Of a stretch of DNA of 13,907 nt, positions 113 through 9,548 are shown one piece after another; the first letter of the stretch is position 1, and each line of letters opens with the position of its first letter. Location of the stretch: contig CAYRPF010000070.1 in the NCBI GenBank assembly GCA_964426185.1, positions 1-13,907 of the forward strand, given 5' to 3'. The translations under genes were made by a program, and so were the position numbers. Source of the stretch: an uncultured archaeon (GTDB lineage Archaea; Asgardarchaeota; Lokiarchaeia; Sigyniarchaeales; Promethearchaeaceae). A model generated the notes under the pieces. The model ran no database searches. It was given only the letters and a program-made list of their open reading frames with translations, and had not been told where the DNA came from.

Positions 113-1834
113 ATGTCTCTAGTTATTCGAATTGATTTATCTTCCCAGCAAATTAATTCAGAAGAAATAACTGAAGAACATCCTCTTTATTATTATGCTG
201 GTCGATCTTTAACATCGAAGATTGTTTCAGAGGAAGTTCCACCGCGATCTAATCCTTTAAGTGCTGAAAATAAATTGATTGTGGCTGCTGGATTTCTGAC
301 CGGAACGCCATGTCCCAATTCGGGACGATTTTCAATAGGTGCTAAAAGCCCGCTAACTAATGGGATAAAAGAATCAAATGTCGGAGGCAGAGCTCCTGCA
401 TTAATGGGGCGGCATGATATCCGTGCTTTGATTTTGGAACATATCTCACCTTTTTGGGTAGTTTTAGTTATACAATCAGACGGAAAAGTTATTATTGATT
501 CTGCAAAAGATCTACAAGGCTTAAACAATTATGATTTAGCCGAGAAGCTTATGGAGAAATATGGAAAAAATATAGGAGTTCTTTCTATCGGTGTTGCGGG
601 AGAAAAACAATTAAAGGCCGCTTCTATTGCTTCAATTGATTTGGAAGGTTATCCGTCCAGACATGCTGGAAGGGGAGGGTTGGGTGCAGTCATGGGTTCC
701 AAGAAATTAAAAGCGATTGTGGTGATACCTCCTAAAAAAACTCGATTGACGTACCATGACATTTCCACTTTTAAAACGGAATCGAAAGAATGGGGATTAT
801 CGATTTATAAAGCCAAACGGATGTTATCCAAGTTTGGAACGTTGGTTGGTTTAACCACCATGAATTCTTTGAATGGATTACCCACTCAAAATTTCCGTCA
901 CGGCTCATATGATAAAGCTGAACAGATTAGCGGTGAAGCTTTATTTGATTATATTGAAGAGAATAACGGGAAAAGTGGGATTGCATGTTCTCCCGGATGC
1001 GTGATAAAATGCTCAAACTTGGTTACAAATTCCGAAGGAAAGCATTTAACATCCAGTTTAGAATATGAAACCGTTGCTTTAAACGGTTCTAATTTATTAA
1101 TAGATTCTATTGAAGATCTTGCGGAAATAGATCACGCTTGTGATGATGTGGGTTTAGATACCATTGAATTCGGTAATGCTACAGGAGTATATATGGAATC
1201 CGGTAAAATTGCTTGGGGTGATGCCAAAAAGGTAGTTGAGTTGATTTATGGTATTATGCAAGATAATCCCGATAGTATAACAGTGGCGAATGGAGCAGTT
1301 AATACAGGTAAAATTTTTCAAGTTAATCGAGTAGCACATGTTAAAGGTCAAGGATTTCCAGGATATGATCCACGTTCATTTAAAGCGATGGGAGTAACTT
1401 TCCTCACTTCTCCAATGGGAGCAGATCATACTGCTGGGTCTGCTATTTCGGGCAGAGTTCCTTATCCCGACCGGGAATACGGTAAATTAACAGAATCTGA
1501 TCATAAAGTAGAATTATCTAGGGGATTGCAGATTTTTACCATGATTCATGATTCAATTGGGCAGTGTTTCTTCGTAAATCCGACATATCAATCGACTCCG
1601 CATATTGTAAAGCTTTTAAATGCAAAATATGGTTGGAATTTAACCCCGAATGAATTAATTAACTGGTCAAAATCTTGGTTGAAAATGGAAATAGATTACA
1701 ACACCAAAGTTGGGCTCAAATCAGTGGATAATTTTCCTTCTTTTATTGAGAAGGAATGTCTGGAAGATAATTCTAAGCGTATTTGGGATGTGTCCCGAGA
1801 AGATCTTGAACATATTTGGAATGATCTAAAGTGA
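113..1834 (+). CDS. aor: Aldehyde:ferredoxin oxidoreductase family (tungstopterin, [4Fe-4S]) protein
   Basis: 573 aa. Family motifs: KSPLTNGIKESNVGG, AGRGGLGAVMGSKKLKAI, LPTQNF, Fe-S motif CSPGCVIKC, EYET, DDVGLDTI, VKGQGFPGYDPR, GADHT, and a fourth Cys in DSIGQCFF. Confidence 0.93.
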   Translation: MSLVIRIDLSSQQINSEEITEEHPLYYYAGRSLTSKIVSEEVPPRSNPLSAENKLIVAAGFLTGTPCPNSGRFSIGAKSPLTNGIKESNVGGRAPALMGRHDIRALILEHISPFWVVLVIQSDGKVIIDSAKDLQGLNNYDLAEKLMEKYGKNIGVLSIGVAGEKQLKAASIASIDLEGYPSRHAGRGGLGAVMGSKKLKAIVVIPPKKTRLTYHDISTFKTESKEWGLSIYKAKRMLSKFGTLVGLTTMNSLNGLPTQNFRHGSYDKAEQISGEALFDYIEENNGKSGIACSPGCVIKCSNLVTNSEGKHLTSSLEYETVALNGSNLLIDSIEDLAEIDHACDDVGLDTIEFGNATGVYMESGKIAWGDAKKVVELIYGIMQDNPDSITVANGAVNTGKIFQVNRVAHVKGQGFPGYDPRSFKAMGVTFLTSPMGADHTAGSAISGRVPYPDREYGKLTESDHKVELSRGLQIFTMIHDSIGQCFFVNPTYQSTPHIVKLLNAKYGWNLTPNELINWSKSWLKMEIDYNTKVGLKSVDNFPSFIEKECLEDNSKRIWDVSREDLEHIWNDLK

Positions 1835-2718: not shown

Positions 2719-3343
2719 TCTTGTAAATTTGAACAAGAACTCTTTTTTGTTGATTATTAGATAGCGAATCCCAATTCGAGGGTAGATTTGACCAAGTCAC
2801 CTTGTAGAATTCGTATTCCATCCTTCTTTCATCTAAGGTTAAATTTTCTACTATTTCCTTGGATATTTCAAGTATATTCGATGGTTTCTCTGAAATATCG
2901 GATGTTTTAGATATATCGGATAATAATTCATGTATCACGTTACATGTAGAATTCATTTGGTTTAATTGCTTATGATCTTCCAAGATACAGTATATTAAGG
3001 GGAAAAATCGGCATTGTGCCGGCCGTGCTGTGTATACCTCACATAATTTAATTTTGGGATTATAAAACGGACATCCCTTCTGATTTGTCATCTGTAAGGC
3101 AAAAATTGGCAGAAAAATGGTTGTTCCAGTTGGTTCCAAATTATTATCCCGCACATGGTATTCGTATTCAACTATTTTCAAATATCTGTTGATGAATTTA
3201 TTTTCTGAGTATCCTAAAAATATATTTAAGCGAAAAAAATCATTAGGATAAAGGAAAACATCTCCTGATTGTGTTGCACTGCAACAAGCTCCACAAAGAG
3301 CACATTTCTTGAGGTAATGATCTTGATTGAAATTAACAACCAT
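2702..3343 (-). CDS. YkgJ-family (CxxCxxCC) Zn/Fe-chelating cysteine-cluster protein
   Basis: CALCGACC near the N-terminus, GCPFY...LCEVYTARPAQCRFFP, and a further distal Cys. Its 3' end overlaps the convergent FAH gene by 17 nt. Confidence 0.9.
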   Translation of the reverse strand: MVVNFNQDHYLKKCALCGACCSATQSGDVFLYPNDFFRLNIFLGYSENKFINRYLKIVEYEYHVRDNNLEPTGTTIFLPIFALQMTNQKGCPFYNPKIKLCEVYTARPAQCRFFPLIYCILEDHKQLNQMNSTCNVIHELLSDISKTSDISEKPSNILEISKEIVENLTLDERRMEYEFYKVTWSNLPSNWDSLSNNQQKRVLVQIYKIMKNF

Positions 3344-3429
3344 TAATTTTGTTAAAAGTAGCGAAAAATATTTTATTTTCTATAAGCAGAAATTTGTTAA
3401 TTTGAAAAATATTAAAATGAATCAGGATT

Positions 3430-4152
3430 ATGCAAACTTCAAAATTTACTGGTTGTGCGAAAATTGCAATTATCGCCAATTTTCCTAATGAAATACGAGA
3501 TAGGGCCAAAAGGTTCTTCCAACAAGTGTTTAAACCTTTTTCTGACAAATTAGAATGGGAATATATTTCGTATAGGGATTTATTAGATGAAAAAAATTTC
3601 AACAAAGCCAAAAAAAAAGATGCGCTTATTTTATCCAGTTCGGATTTTATTATCAGCGATCCTATTGTTCAGGAAAAAATGTTGGTTGAAATGTATCTGA
3701 TTAGGCAGTTTAAAGGACCAATTTTTGGGATGTGTTTTGGACATCATTTATTAGAATTCATGTACGGTGCTGATGTTACCGAGCAAATTCCGGTTGATTT
3801 TTTTAACAGCCAAGATTTAATTTCCATTGATTGGCAAAATAGCAGTAAATTGGAGGAAAAACACGAAAAAGACCATAAAAAACCATCATCAACCGATATA
3901 AAATTTTCTCCTAAAATTGAGGAAAATATTGGAAAAATTGTCAACCATCCATCAAAAATTGATTACATCCCTCTATTTCGCGATGATTTTTCAATTTATG
4001 ATCTTGCTCCCCAAGCCAAAGTTTATGCCAAACAACATAAATCACTGCCAATCTATGGTGTAGATTTAGGTATGAATGAAAATTCACCCGAGATTGCCTT
4101 CGCAACAGCAGTAAATGTGCTCCAGAAATTTATTACTTATTTCTTCAAATAA
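3430..4152 (+). CDS. Class I glutamine amidotransferase-like protein, probably catalytically degenerate
   Basis: DALILSSS (cf. DgiilSGG) and nucleophile elbow PIFGMCFGHHLL are present. The C-terminal KSLPIYGVDLG replaces the usual YGvQFHPE. Confidence 0.75.
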   Translation: MQTSKFTGCAKIAIIANFPNEIRDRAKRFFQQVFKPFSDKLEWEYISYRDLLDEKNFNKAKKKDALILSSSDFIISDPIVQEKMLVEMYLIRQFKGPIFGMCFGHHLLEFMYGADVTEQIPVDFFNSQDLISIDWQNSSKLEEKHEKDHKKPSSTDIKFSPKIEENIGKIVNHPSKIDYIPLFRDDFSIYDLAPQAKVYAKQHKSLPIYGVDLGMNENSPEIAFATAVNVLQKFITYFFK

Positions 4153-4162
4153 GAAATTATTA

Positions 4163-4169
4163 TTTTTTT
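4163..4169 (+). terminator. Putative archaeal oligo-T terminator of the GATase-like gene
   Basis: T7 run about 10 nt after the stop at 4152. Confidence 0.4.
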
Positions 4170-4352
4170 ATTGAAATTTATATCCAAAATTCTAATTTCT
4201 CTATTTTCCGATAGTATTGAACAATCTACAATACAATCAAGCAGCAAAGTATTGACGATTGCTTGGTGTTACAATGTAATAGCCGAATGGATTAATTTAT
4301 GGGATGCAATCATGCCAACAATTCTTAGCACAATAAGAAATAAAAAATTTGC

Positions 4353-4363
4353 AAAAAAAAAAA
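4353..4363 (-). terminator. Putative oligo-T terminator of the small zinc-finger gene
   Basis: A11 on the + strand is T11 on the - strand, about 42 nt after the stop at 4406. Confidence 0.45.
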
Positions 4364-4405
4364 TAGTGATAATTCTAAATGATTTTTGACATATATGGAT
4401 AGATG

Positions 4406-4579
4406 TTATTTAGAATTATTGCATGTAAAGTCCTCAAAACACTGTTTATGATACCATTTCTCCATTTGGGCATGGTAGAAGAGATATTCACCTTCAATTT
4501 GATGACATAGCACACATGGTTCTTGTTTCTTAACAATAATGTTGTTTTGGTTGTTATTTTGAGAGATCATATCTTCCAT
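4406..4579 (-). CDS. Uncalled 57-aa zinc-finger microprotein (C-x2-C-x18-H-x2-C; half-LIM/treble-clef-like)
   Basis: Manual translation: MEDMISQNNNQNNIIVKKQEPCVLCHQIEGEYLFYHAQMEKWYHKQCFEDFTCNNSK*. SD-like GGAGATGA lies 7 nt upstream of the ATG and a T11 run lies downstream. Confidence 0.75.
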   Translation of the reverse strand: MEDMISQNNNQNNIIVKKQEPCVLCHQIEGEYLFYHAQMEKWYHKQCFEDFTCNNSK

Positions 4580-4586
4580 TCTTTAA

Positions 4587-4594
4587 TCATCTCC
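4587..4594 (-). promoter_or_regulatory. Shine-Dalgarno-like site (GGAGATGA) of the 57-aa ORF
   Basis: One mismatch to the archaeal consensus GGAGGTGA, with 7-nt spacing to the ATG at 4579. Confidence 0.6.
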
Positions 4595-4763
4595 ATTTTA
4601 AAAATGTCGGTTATTGTTGGATAATCAAACAAATCACTGATAATTTCTATTAGATCGTACCCAAATAAAAGAATTTCGTTGCAAAAGAATTTAAGTCATG
4701 CAATTCTGAATGTTAGCAAGAAATTATGCAATCTCCGACAATAAAAATTTGTCTAATTTAATA

Positions 4764-4871
4764 ATAGTGTTATAATGAGATCCTTTGATTAGAACAAGGC
4801 GTTTTAAAATGTTATTTGGAAATGAATTATATATTTCATATACTTGGTTGAAAAGAATAATGCGATCGGCG
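4764..4871 (-). pseudogene. Decayed partial copy of the alpha/beta hydrolase 3' region
   Basis: Ungapped 108-bp match to 6071-6178 with 18 mismatches by hand count (about 83% identity). It encodes ADRIILFNQVYEIYNSFPNNILKRLVLIKGSHYNTI versus ADRIIPFNQAQEIYKTLPNNIFKRLVPIKGAHHNTI. Confidence 0.85.
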
Positions 4872-4976
4872 CTATCATGCTTAATGTTATGAAAAATTGA
4901 ATTTTGTATATTGAAAAAATGAAATTTAGAAATTGAGAATAACATTTTTATAGGTGAAAAATATATATCGAATGAA

Positions 4977-7014: not shown

Positions 7015-7872
7015 ATGTTTCAATTAAATGAAAATAAACGAGAGAAAAAATGGGGTTTTATATTCATGGGAATTTATATATCCATCTTTCTTTTTTATCT
7101 CTTTTTCGATGGCTGGCATTTTGAATGGCTTCATTATGGATACAAAGGAGAAAATCAGCACTTTGATTTCAATATTTTTGGGGATATGAAATGGGATATT
7201 ATCAACGGTGAAAGAATTTACTATTCGACAAATAATCTGCATAATTTAGTATATATATGCTATTGGACAGGTACAATTTCGTATCTGGCTCTAATTACTG
7301 GAAATAAATGGTTAAGACAAGGTTCAGTGGCAACAATGGCATTCCCTGTCATTTCAGCATTCAGTACTATTAATCCATTTGTGGCTTCTGATATTTTTAC
7401 TACGGATATATTCTATTATCACTCGTATATTCTTCAAATTGTTTATGATATAAATCATATTTGCGGAATTATCATGGGTGTTTATAACTACAACATTTTA
7501 AATAAAAGCAATGAGAATATAGATTTTAAAAAAATTACTCCAACAATTTTGTTTACTTGGCTGCTTTTTATTCTAGCGCGGGTGTTTCTGCAGAAATGGC
7601 CATTTTGGGAACATGATCATGAATTAGGGATGATTTCTACTAACCAAATAAACAATATGCCCTTTGTTTTTTACGGATTAGAATATATTATTGTAATAGC
7701 ACTATTGTACTTAATCAATGGGCTTCTTTATTGGCTAGCTCCGAAAATTAAACGGAGTTGGGCACAAACTATGATTCCATTCTTGGTATTTGCGGTTTTA
7801 ACCATTATTCTTGTTCAAGTTGGTTTAATAGAACTTCAAGAAATACCATATACTGCATTTGTTCAAAATTAG
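7015..7872 (+). CDS. Polytopic membrane protein, YwaF/TMEM164-like (possible Cys/His intramembrane acyltransferase or hydrolase)
   Basis: About 6-7 hydrophobic segments. The pattern NLVYIC(82)YW...LALITGNKWL...SAFSTINP...DINH(148)ICG resembles the YwaF/TMEM164 layout. Family judged by eye only. Confidence 0.55.
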   Translation: MFQLNENKREKKWGFIFMGIYISIFLFYLFFDGWHFEWLHYGYKGENQHFDFNIFGDMKWDIINGERIYYSTNNLHNLVYICYWTGTISYLALITGNKWLRQGSVATMAFPVISAFSTINPFVASDIFTTDIFYYHSYILQIVYDINHICGIIMGVYNYNILNKSNENIDFKKITPTILFTWLLFILARVFLQKWPFWEHDHELGMISTNQINNMPFVFYGLEYIIVIALLYLINGLLYWLAPKIKRSWAQTMIPFLVFAVLTIILVQVGLIELQEIPYTAFVQN

Positions 7873-7986
7873 GTGTAAATATTTTTTTGTAATATTAATA
7901 TGTCCAATGAAAGCACAATTTTAATAATTTCAACATCTAATTACATTTAGTTAAGAAAAAATGTTTTGTAATAGTGAGAATTAACA

Positions 7987-8766
7987 GTGAGCAGCACACC
8001 TTCAAACGATGAAAAAAATGAACTTCGCGTCTTTCAATTAAATGATGAAAAAGCAACATTTGAAGAATTAGAACTCGAATCAAATGCAAAAATAACAGAG
8101 TTGCTAAAATCTGACATAATTCTATACTTTATCAAACCTAAAACCTTTCGTTCTTATATTTGGACTGGAGCTCAAGCTAGTACTCGAATGAAATTCATAG
8201 CTGCCAATGCAGCTACTAGAGTCAGAGATAAAGTCGGGCCTGCAATCAAAATCTCTACCGTGGAAGAAGATGAAGAGCCAATGGCATTTAAGATATTTTT
8301 AGGTTTGGAAGAACCCGTGAAATATGATGAAACACAAACCGGACCAGCATATGAAGGCCGGACAGAAGATGAAGGTTTACTGGAAGAAATGTCTTTGGAA
8401 AAAATTGTGCTCACTTTGGAAAAATTAGGCACTCCAGAAGATGCTGTACGTGAGATGGTTCTAGTAGGGAATGATATTTACGGCTATCATGAAAATTACA
8501 AAAAATATTTTGGTGAAATCATTAAAGAACGAAAGTTATATCCTTTGGAAGAAAAAGTCCCTGATGGAATGTATAAACAAGAAAATCTTTATCCCCGGTT
8601 TTTGATAAGTCACAATCGAGTAGTTTTAGTGGAATTTTTCCGCAAAATAACACCAGAAGAACAAGAACAAAATGAACGTGAAGCCGAAAAACTGACAGAA
8701 CTCGCTCAAGCAGCTAAACCTTTCTCAGAATCAAGCCCTGATTCTAATACAGAACAAGAAATATAG
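7987..8766 (+). CDS. Gelsolin-domain protein (one gelsolin repeat, an uncharacterised C-terminal domain and an acidic tail)
   Basis: Residues ~11-107 match the gelsolin fold consensus: LRVFQL...LLKSDIILYFI...SYIWTGAQAS...KFIAANAA...ISTVEEDEEPMAFKIFLG. SD-like AGTGAG precedes the GTG start. Confidence 0.85.
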   Translation: MSSTPSNDEKNELRVFQLNDEKATFEELELESNAKITELLKSDIILYFIKPKTFRSYIWTGAQASTRMKFIAANAATRVRDKVGPAIKISTVEEDEEPMAFKIFLGLEEPVKYDETQTGPAYEGRTEDEGLLEEMSLEKIVLTLEKLGTPEDAVREMVLVGNDIYGYHENYKKYFGEIIKERKLYPLEEKVPDGMYKQENLYPRFLISHNRVVLVEFFRKITPEEQEQNEREAEKLTELAQAAKPFSESSPDSNTEQEI

Positions 8767-8775
8767 TGATAAATT

Positions 8776-8919
8776 ATGTCTCCCGTTCCAACTAGAAAAA
8801 CTCGAAGATCTAACAGAAATCAAAGCCGTATTGCAAAAAAGCAATGGATCGCATATAGTATCATTTTAGTTGTCTTGATTTCAGTTATTATTACGATTGC
8901 ATTAGCTGGACATCATTAA
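8776..8919 (+). CDS. Uncalled 47-aa single-pass (tail-anchored-like) membrane microprotein
   Basis: Manual translation: MSPVPTRKTRRSNRNQSRIAKKQWIAYSIILVVLISVIITIALAGHH*. It starts 9 nt after the gelsolin stop, has AGTGAT upstream, and its stop overlaps the LRR gene stop (TTAA, 8916-8919). Confidence 0.75.
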   Translation: MSPVPTRKTRRSNRNQSRIAKKQWIAYSIILVVLISVIITIALAGHH

Positions 8920-9548
8920 TCCACTGATCTACAGAAATTTTTTACTGCTTCAAGACCTTTTGTGATGATTTTTTGTTCTTCAAGTGGAAATCTGGCCTTA
9001 TCCAAGCGCAATTCCACCAAATTTTCTAGTAAATGTAAGTTTTGCAGATGCTTAATAGGATTTTGCCGAAGATCTAAGATTTTTAAATTAGGTAGATTTA
9101 ATCGGGGAATTTCACAGATCATGTTATGAAATAAGTTTAAAATTTCCAACTCCTTCAAATTTTCCAGATTTTCCCATGATGAAAGGTGGTTATGGGATAA
9201 ATCCAGTGATTTTAGATGAGTTAACTTGGTGATCGGTCCCAAAACTGCGTTAGTTAAACGATTATCTTGTAGATTCAATGCTATTAAATTAGTACACCTT
9301 TCTAGATTTCGCAATTTTTTTAGTTGATTAGCGGGCAGCTGTAATTTTGTGAGAAATGGTAAATCTTTTAACTGTCGGGGAATAATAACTATTCCGGCCG
9401 AGATTAACTGTACTTCTTTAACATGCCCATTAGCAATCGTGAAATTAAAACCAAAATTTTGTTCAATCGATTCCATAATACTTTTTATTACCCTTACTTC
9501 TGAAGGAAATCGAATTTGACGCAAAGTGCGTTCTGGATTATTAAACAT
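8916..9548 (-). CDS. Leucine-rich repeat protein (SDS22-like, about 6 repeats)
   Basis: ~22-aa repeats LxxLxLxxNxL/I: LTKLQLPANQL, LIALNLQDNRL, LKSLDLSHNHL, LEILNLFHNMI, LKILDLRQNPI, LVELRLD. N- and C-terminal cap segments are present. Confidence 0.92.
   Translation of the reverse strand: MFNNPERTLRQIRFPSEVRVIKSIMESIEQNFGFNFTIANGHVKEVQLISAGIVIIPRQLKDLPFLTKLQLPANQLKKLRNLERCTNLIALNLQDNRLTNAVLGPITKLTHLKSLDLSHNHLSSWENLENLKELEILNLFHNMICEIPRLNLPNLKILDLRQNPIKHLQNLHLLENLVELRLDKARFPLEEQKIITKGLEAVKNFCRSVD

Follow-up and report, generated by a model that had tools for sequence, protein, structure and literature searches.

The 13,907-nucleotide (nt) stretch analyzed here, referred to below as the window, is an entire 13.9-kb contig (CAYRPF010000070.1) from the genome assembly of an uncultured archaeon (GCA_964426185.1; 3.26 Mb, 92% complete) that GTDB places in the same genus as the genome matching Candidatus Harpocratesius repetitus. 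On its plus strand lie a gene for a gelsolin protein of the 1DGelX type and, directly behind it, a gene for a 47-amino-acid (aa) protein with a basic N terminus and a C-terminal transmembrane (TM) helix, referred to here as the microprotein. Together the two genes form a conserved module that is kept across most Lokiarchaeales. The features of the pair, all on the plus strand and each with the basis for its assignment, are as follows:

7873..7986, plus strand: AT-rich intergenic region, likely promoter for the pair (inference from sequence only)
7987..8766, plus strand: 1DGelX-type gelsolin gene, 259 aa, GTG start (open reading frame; 49 full-length homologues, 80 genomic loci)
8023..8301, plus strand: gelsolin-homology domain, residues about 13-105 (phmmer, Foldseek, and VIA matches)
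8302..8394, plus strand: conserved acidic linker, residues 106-136, lower model confidence (alignments; pLDDT 56-70)
8395..8712, plus strand: domain X, residues 137-242 (AF2 pLDDT about 75-89; conserved in all homologues)
8713..8763, plus strand: final part of the acidic C-terminal tail, containing a short "PF" motif, specific to the window's family (tail comparison, 91 sequences)
8766..8770, plus strand: GTGAT, Shine-Dalgarno-like, 5 nt before the ATG, sharing a base with the end of the gelsolin stop codon (sequence; congeneric 16S 3' end)
8776..8919, plus strand: gene for the 47-aa tail-anchored microprotein, ATG start (64 of 77 loci; pN far below pS; single profile match; in public protein sets)
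8776..8844, plus strand: polybasic segment, residues 1-23, predicted cytoplasmic, net +8 (charge count)
8845..8910, plus strand: TM helix, residues 24-45, with a small-xxx-small face at S36 and T40 (hydropathy; family alignment)

A preliminary description of this DNA, made from its letters, had placed a gelsolin-domain protein at 7987, and comparisons with the Protein Data Bank (PDB) bear this out. By phmmer, residues 26-108 match Thor ProGel (7c2f_B) with an E value of 2.2e-4, followed by 7c2g_G (2e-3), 7c2h_G (2.5e-3), and also 7whf; the top sequence matches are all Asgard gelsolins, with Thor ProGel first and then 2DGel3 and the Heimdall 2DGel. The AlphaFold2 (AF2) model of the protein, built on a 91-sequence alignment, reached a predicted local distance difference test (pLDDT) score of 76.9, compared to only 53.9 in an earlier run with 23 sequences, and residues 13-105 are modeled at pLDDT 80-90. 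Foldseek aligned this domain model to 7c2f_B at a TM score of 0.83 (E value of 6e-6), and VIA superposed residues 13-105 on Thor ProGel with a Z score of 14.8 and a root mean square deviation of 1.6 Å over 88 residues. At least 20 further domains of gelsolin, villin, fragmin, and adseverin superpose at Z > 8. The gelsolin fold consists of a central mixed beta sheet between one long and one short helix, and the modeled N-terminal domain has this arrangement. The Pfam Gelsolin family (PF00626) did not match the 259-aa protein at E values up to 0.1, and none of the 49 full-length homologues (243-262 aa) carries a precomputed Pfam domain. The assignment therefore rests on the fold and the PDB sequence matches, because the Pfam model misses the divergent Asgard domains.

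The remainder of the protein is also conserved. In the linker, Q117, G119, P120, Y122, and D128 are nearly invariant, and the net charge over residues 111-136 is -6. Domain X is modeled with five long beta strands and two helices, the C-terminal one being long, and both domains (residues 13-105 and 137-242), joined by the linker in the model, are conserved across the 91 sequences. The C-terminal half had been described as very acidic, which is correct for its net charge (-10 over residues 130-259) but misses that this half contains the conserved folded domain at 137-242, the core of which (residues 137-222) is charge neutral; the acidity is located in the linker (-6) and in the final 37 residues (-8). 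We found no convincing structural match of domain X to any recognized fold. Matches from whole-model structure searches were mostly driven by the gelsolin domain; the best match for domain X itself, a dCache sensor domain, was rejected because a Z score of 4.3 is not meaningful; and an ESM Atlas feature search with residues 125-259 returned its own Asgard clusters alone (0.81-0.82).

By its domain layout, an N-terminal gelsolin domain and a distinct C-terminal domain X, the 259-aa protein has the published 1DGelX architecture. It shares with the described Asgard 1DGelX the single N-terminal gelsolin/cofilin domain and a C-terminal domain that is not a gelsolin domain, and its nearest solved structure is Thor ProGel. 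It differs in that domain X was predicted to be a coiled coil in the published work (PMC7444086), whereas our AF2 model is an alpha/beta domain, and in that the acidic tail is an addition of the window's family. The same paper describes no partner gene, operon, or membrane protein for 1DGelX. With rabbit actin, Thor 1DGelX was shown to have a nucleating activity and a severing activity that does not require calcium (Akıl et al. 2020, PNAS, PMC7444086). Actin regulation is known from Thor 1DGelX only and is the proposed role of the 259-aa protein.

The microprotein gene lies where the preliminary description had put it, at 8776-8919, with a spacer of 9 nt between the gelsolin stop codon (TAG, 8764-8766) and its ATG. 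The Shine-Dalgarno-like motif claimed for this gene is present as GTGAT at 8766-8770, which can pair with AUCAC at the 16S 3' end (...GGATCACCTCCT) of a complete congeneric genome (G135); no 16S gene was found in the window's own assembly. The 5-nt motif occurs at 7 of 63 loci, mostly within the window's family, and was rejected as a general feature of the microprotein family on that count. As had also been predicted, the protein combines an Arg/Lys-rich N terminus of 23 residues (net +8) with a C-terminal TM helix at residues 24-45, which has a mean Kyte-Doolittle hydropathy of 2.9 over 19 residues and is followed by only two residues, HH. With a single predicted TM helix at the extreme C terminus and a polar, basic N terminus, the microprotein has the sequence hallmarks of a tail-anchored protein. 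The positive-inside rule predicts a cytosolic N terminus. Insertion into the membrane would have to be posttranslational, because the helix of a 47-aa protein exits the ribosome only at termination. The window's genome encodes an ArsA/Get3-like ATPase (contig C20, 86.7 bits).

The preliminary description had regarded this open reading frame (ORF) as uncalled and hidden, which does not hold in general. An identical 47-aa sequence is present, unnamed, in a public protein collection drawing on NCBI, JGI, and ENA sources; the orthologue in Lokiarchaeum ossiferum is already annotated as hypothetical protein NEF87_005016; and a 49-aa orthologue on the closest relative contig is also called by the gene caller. 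The two start variants looked up for strain MK-D1 (41 and 44 aa) were not found in the public collection.

To follow the pair across relatives, we assembled 80 loci carrying an orthologue of the gelsolin gene from a scan of one genome per species, including MK-D1, L. ossiferum, and H. repetitus; 77 of these have sequence downstream of the gelsolin gene and are assessable. At 64 of the 77, an ORF of 41-56 aa with a Lys/Arg-rich N terminus and a C-terminal TM helix directly follows the gelsolin gene on the same strand. Conservation and synteny in relatives were the test set for the small ORF beforehand, and both were found. As a control, we applied a simple rule (a hydrophobic 17-mer preceded by a net charge of at least +6 and followed by no more than 10 residues) to all ORFs of 30-70 aa on both strands of the 80 loci (464 kb, n = 1,919). 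Only 62 ORFs passed, and all 62 lie directly after the gelsolin gene on the same strand. When the window genes were compared with those of the two closest relatives, nonsynonymous divergence (pN) of the microprotein gene was 0.17-0.22 against a synonymous divergence (pS) of 0.61-0.89, with synonymous sites at or near saturation, and the gelsolin gene behaved alike. Since pN is far below pS, the microprotein gene is under purifying selection.

All 39 aligned relatives have the same basic N-terminal segment and C-terminal TM helix. The N-terminal segment has a median length of 23 aa and a net charge of +10, with almost no acidic residues; the proteins start with M-S, and many continue with H-V-R-R. 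The helix is about 22 residues long and is followed by a tail of 0-5 residues. Most helix positions interchange I, L, V, and F; the exceptions are positions 26, 36, and 40. Position 36 is Ser in 36 of the 39 sequences, and positions 26 and 40 are small in all 39 (S, G, A, or T at position 40). A small-xxx-small face is a classic signature of helix-helix packing, and because it is conserved here, the helix is probably more than a passive anchor. The face suggests packing against a second helix, which may come from another copy of the microprotein, forming an oligomer, or from a membrane protein like the neighboring VTT/DedA protein.

These data also bear on whether the small ORF could be open by chance or be a noncoding 3' element of the gelsolin transcript. 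It is short, the genome is AT rich, and small ORFs are common, as the 1,919 ORFs of 30-70 aa in 464 kb illustrate. Against this stand the position control, in which every ORF that passed the rule sits at the same position and strand, selection acting at the amino acid level, and the invariant or small-only columns of the alignment; a search of Rfam over 7700-9100 returned nothing relevant. We consider the chance or noncoding explanation refuted by the position control, the selection, and the constrained columns, with practically no probability left to it, and the microprotein gene almost certainly real.

A profile built from the 39 members finds one match in the window's genome (E value of 1.8e-14; the next is at 0.05), and the three other GelX paralogues of this genome have no microprotein neighbor. 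Among 400 genomes of the phylum, the profile matches 109, nearly all in single copy, and the matches are concentrated in two families of one order (9 of 13 and 85 of 135 genomes). Both cultured Lokiarchaeales, MK-D1 (where locus L004 holds the orthologue of the window's gelsolin gene) and L. ossiferum, carry the pair. The spacer between the two genes has a median of 28 nt, and at several loci it is 1-4 nt or the genes overlap. G279, a genome from a third family, has the two genes in reversed order, with the microprotein gene immediately before the gelsolin gene, and the two thus remain adjacent. Only the pair itself is constant; the flanking genes vary between lineages. The flanking products include, upstream of the pair in the window, a 285-aa membrane protein; the closest relative has an ABC transporter, MK-D1 a beta-eliminating lyase, and a more distant genome Ogg. 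Because the pair is conserved, syntenic, under purifying selection, and adjacent even when its order is reversed, a functional linkage between microprotein and gelsolin is likely.

What form this linkage takes is a matter of weighing several readings. We tentatively favor one in which the microprotein is a membrane-resident partner of this gelsolin, with the membrane location following from the sequence of the microprotein. The first gene would supply a cytosolic actin regulator of the 1DGelX type, consisting of the gelsolin domain, the linker, and domain X, and the second would supply a tail-anchored protein of about 45-50 residues that crosses the membrane once, its polybasic N terminus facing the cytoplasm. 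At the inner membrane face, the polybasic segment would recruit or regulate the acidic gelsolin, presumably through contact with the conserved gelsolin domain, the acidic linker, or domain X rather than with the lineage-specific tail. Binding of the microprotein to acidic Lokiactin filaments and anionic lipids could add to this contact or replace it. The outcome would be that actin severing and nucleation are placed at the membrane. A physical tether between gelsolin and membrane is plausible under this reading, and we infer cotranscription of the genes, binding of their products, and an effect on actin.

Several observations weigh against this membrane-partner reading. Thirteen assessable loci keep the gelsolin gene without the microprotein, and so do whole genera (0 of 6 in genus g12 and 0 of 4 in g13). 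Conversely, two sister families have microprotein-like genes, with the orthologous gelsolin neither nearby nor elsewhere in the genome. In H. repetitus the spacer is 109 nt long and AT rich, and the small gene may be under its own promoter. No fusion of a gelsolin to a TM segment was found among the best 150 family representatives from an HMMER profile search of 1.84 billion representatives of clusters that together hold about 15 billion proteins. Charge does not discriminate either: gelsolins with a partner have a net charge of -16 and those without have -18, which is no difference, and in 52 partnered relatives domain X is followed by a tail whose median length is 6 residues and whose net charge is 0. 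The 37-residue tail of net -8 is peculiar to the window's family. The mechanism first proposed, binding of the basic peptide to the acidic tail of gelsolin, cannot be the conserved one, as most partnered gelsolins lack the tail and unpartnered ones are equally acidic. Because the acidic tail is lineage specific, any contact with gelsolin must use the gelsolin domain, the linker, or domain X. A complex prediction with the gelsolin and microprotein alignments scored 0.00 against a mark of 0.32 and counts neither way.

That the acidity of gelsolin is independent of the presence of the partner fits with another account, in which the polybasic protein itself binds acidic Lokiactin and anionic lipids in the manner of a MARCKS effector domain, while the coexpressed gelsolin simply severs or caps filaments and the two proteins do not bind each other. 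The strongly basic N-terminal segment (median net charge of +10, acidic residues nearly absent) agrees with this, and apart from its charge the N-terminal sequence is weakly conserved, as electrostatic binding would predict. However, the M-S-H-V-R-R motif is conserved in many relatives, which hints at a specific partner, and we regard this account as decidedly unlikely. Membrane-actin interfaces of this kind are familiar in eukaryotes, where the polybasic effector domain of MARCKS and the regulation of gelsolin by phosphatidylinositol 4,5-bisphosphate (PIP2) are examples. By analogy, the logic may be the same, combining an actin regulator and anionic lipids with a basic cluster on the inner face of the membrane, but there is no homology: here the gelsolin is acidic, and the candidate partner is basic and predicted to be integral rather than peripheral.

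The neighborhood of the pair offers a further reading. Behind the microprotein gene, most relatives have a third gene, which encodes a protein with the domain of the VTT/DedA family (PF09335, 39.6 bits against a cutoff of 33.9), to which VMP1, TMEM41B, Tvp38, and bacterial DedA belong. The two genes are distributed over the 80 gelsolin loci as follows:

microprotein and VTT: 48 loci
microprotein only: 16 loci
VTT only: 7 loci
neither microprotein nor VTT: 9 loci

In the window, no VTT gene directly follows the microprotein gene, and a convergent leucine-rich-repeat (LRR) gene is found there instead; the VTT homologues of this genome are located on contigs C12 and C34 (33% identity). In a sample seeded with the microprotein, the microprotein with gelsolin and without VTT was found, and the microprotein with VTT and without gelsolin was never seen. 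At two further loci, truncated microprotein remnants lie between GelX and VTT (L018, about 3669-3750; L020, about 3679-3790), one with a frame break after the basic segment and the other with an internal deletion in the helix; these remnants may be pseudogenes or may reflect errors of assembly.

A second gene with a possible bearing on lipids encodes a protein of the inositol-monophosphatase (IMPase) family (PF00459). At 10 further loci of the window's family this gene abuts the pair in convergent orientation downstream, for example at 3838-4716 on the minus strand of L004 and at 4076-4951 on the minus strand of L001, with L002, L003, L006-L008, L111, L115, and L116 also having this neighbor. 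In the genome with reversed gene order (G279; locus L107, 2143-3027, plus strand), it lies directly upstream of the pair on the same strand. This neighbor may hint at a link to inositol lipids. The window contains no IMPase gene; an LRR gene occupies this place in the window and in its closest relative. The VTT gene of the window's family is located elsewhere.

On this basis, the microprotein could be an accessory or regulator of membrane-lipid machinery (VTT/DedA and, in the window's family, inositol-lipid supply), with gelsolin acting in the same process, for example membrane remodeling or protrusion growth, without direct contact. A VTT gene follows the microprotein in 48 of the 64 partnered loci, the IMPase-family gene abuts the pair in the window's family and lies directly upstream of it in G279, and the conserved small-xxx-small face points to packing of helices within the membrane. 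However, the pair persists in the window's genome with VTT on other contigs and no IMPase gene in the window, 16 loci have the microprotein and gelsolin without VTT, 7 have gelsolin and VTT without the microprotein, and the microprotein with VTT but without gelsolin was not seen in our samples. We take the lipid-machinery explanation seriously but consider it somewhat unlikely. Elements of it can be combined with the membrane-partner reading into a dedicated actin-membrane interface of the Lokiarchaeales, in which the microprotein would dock 1DGelX and/or Lokiactin while its helix joins a VTT/DedA scramblase or inositol-lipid supply, coupling actin turnover to lipid remodeling in protrusions. 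In this full form, we rate the proposal as rather unlikely.

The architecture of the microprotein also recalls tail-anchored clients of Get3/TRC40 such as Sec61-beta and RAMP4/SERP, which likewise have about 50 residues, a basic cytosolic N terminus, and a TM helix at the extreme C terminus; the window's genome also encodes a Get3/ArsA homologue. The microprotein differs in that it belongs to neither of these sequence families and is tied to genes for an actin regulator rather than the translocon. It could nevertheless be a general housekeeping protein, a translocon or ribosome subunit like Sec61-beta or RAMP4, whose adjacency to gelsolin is meaningless. Besides the shared architecture, this idea draws on the microprotein-like genes that lie away from any gelsolin in two sister families and on weak look-alikes right after Get3/ArsA genes in other Asgard families. 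Pfam, however, gave no family match for the window's microprotein and only scattered single chance matches for the 39 relatives, and neither the window's protein nor any of the relatives matched Sec61_beta (PF03911). A genuine Sec61-beta gene is found elsewhere in the genome (C8:17640-17756, 46.2 bits against a cutoff of 27). In addition, adjacency to one gelsolin orthologue is kept across the order despite changing flanks, and a housekeeping subunit would not be absent from whole genera. The housekeeping explanation is therefore very improbable.

The sister-family genes (E values of 1e-8 to 1e-10) are located at 3050-3190 of L098, 2954-3091 of L099, and 3013-3165 of L100. Two of these loci have a geranylgeranyl-reductase-like FAD protein nearby, and one has three small coiled-coil-like genes; the GelX matches in these genomes are at paralogue level only. 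In other Asgard families, an ORF of 36-48 aa with a C-terminal TM helix directly follows an ArsA/Get3-type ATPase gene (PF02374, E value of 1e-90), as in L101 (ATPase at 3131-4090 and ORF at 3007-3153, both on the minus strand) and L104 (3179-4171 and 3056-3166, both on the minus strand). These ORFs match the microprotein profile weakly, with E values of about 1e-6, and this arrangement is possibly a tail-anchor targeting factor beside a client.

Downstream of the pair, the window carries one further feature:

8916-9548, minus strand: gene for a 210-aa LRR protein (LRR_4, LRR_8), convergent, its stop codon overlapping that of the microprotein gene by 4 nt

Among the relatives, only the closest contig (L117, 78% identity) has this LRR gene conserved at the same place. 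At five loci, a ProGel-like single-domain gelsolin gene lies immediately upstream of GelX (L009, 2375-2760; L011; L013; L078; and L079), resulting in the order ProGel, GelX, microprotein, VTT; in L078 two gelsolin matches share a frame. On contig C4 of the window's own genome, a GelX paralogue of 253 aa (L084, 1495-2256, minus strand) is followed on the same strand by a gene for a 129-aa protein (1076-1465, minus strand) with a borderline Roadblock/LC7 match (22.3 bits against a cutoff of 23), which is a different small partner of a different gelsolin.

The gelsolin of the pair belongs to a published class, and the microprotein belongs to no described family. The preliminary description knew of no gelsolin-microprotein pair, and our literature searches likewise found no paper on one, none combining Asgard gelsolins with tail-anchored or DedA proteins, and, among the papers searched, no link between DedA and gelsolin. 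To our knowledge, the Asgard actin regulators studied to date, profilins and gelsolins, are all soluble. Two 1DGelX proteins were counted in MK-D1 by the authors of the 1DGelX work (PMC9433394). The recent motility paper on L. ossiferum (PMC13716822) reports nine gelsolin-homology proteins, five of which coprecipitate with Lokiactin, and makes no mention of the orthologue of the window's gelsolin.

Crawling and the formation of protrusions filled with actin have been described in Asgard archaea (PMC9834061, PMC13716822). The pair described here provides a concrete and cheaply testable candidate for coupling actin to the membrane in these organisms, as the 23-residue N-terminal peptide can be synthesized. 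It also illustrates that small membrane proteins of Asgard archaea can go missed or unnamed, as with the MK-D1 variants absent from the public collection. When fused to GFP and expressed in human cells, Thor 1DGelX concentrates at regions typical of the endoplasmic reticulum and nuclear envelope (PMC7444086), and a pairing with a membrane protein may explain this localization. If the microprotein does serve as a docking interface, it would be the first membrane adaptor of an actin regulator outside eukaryotes.

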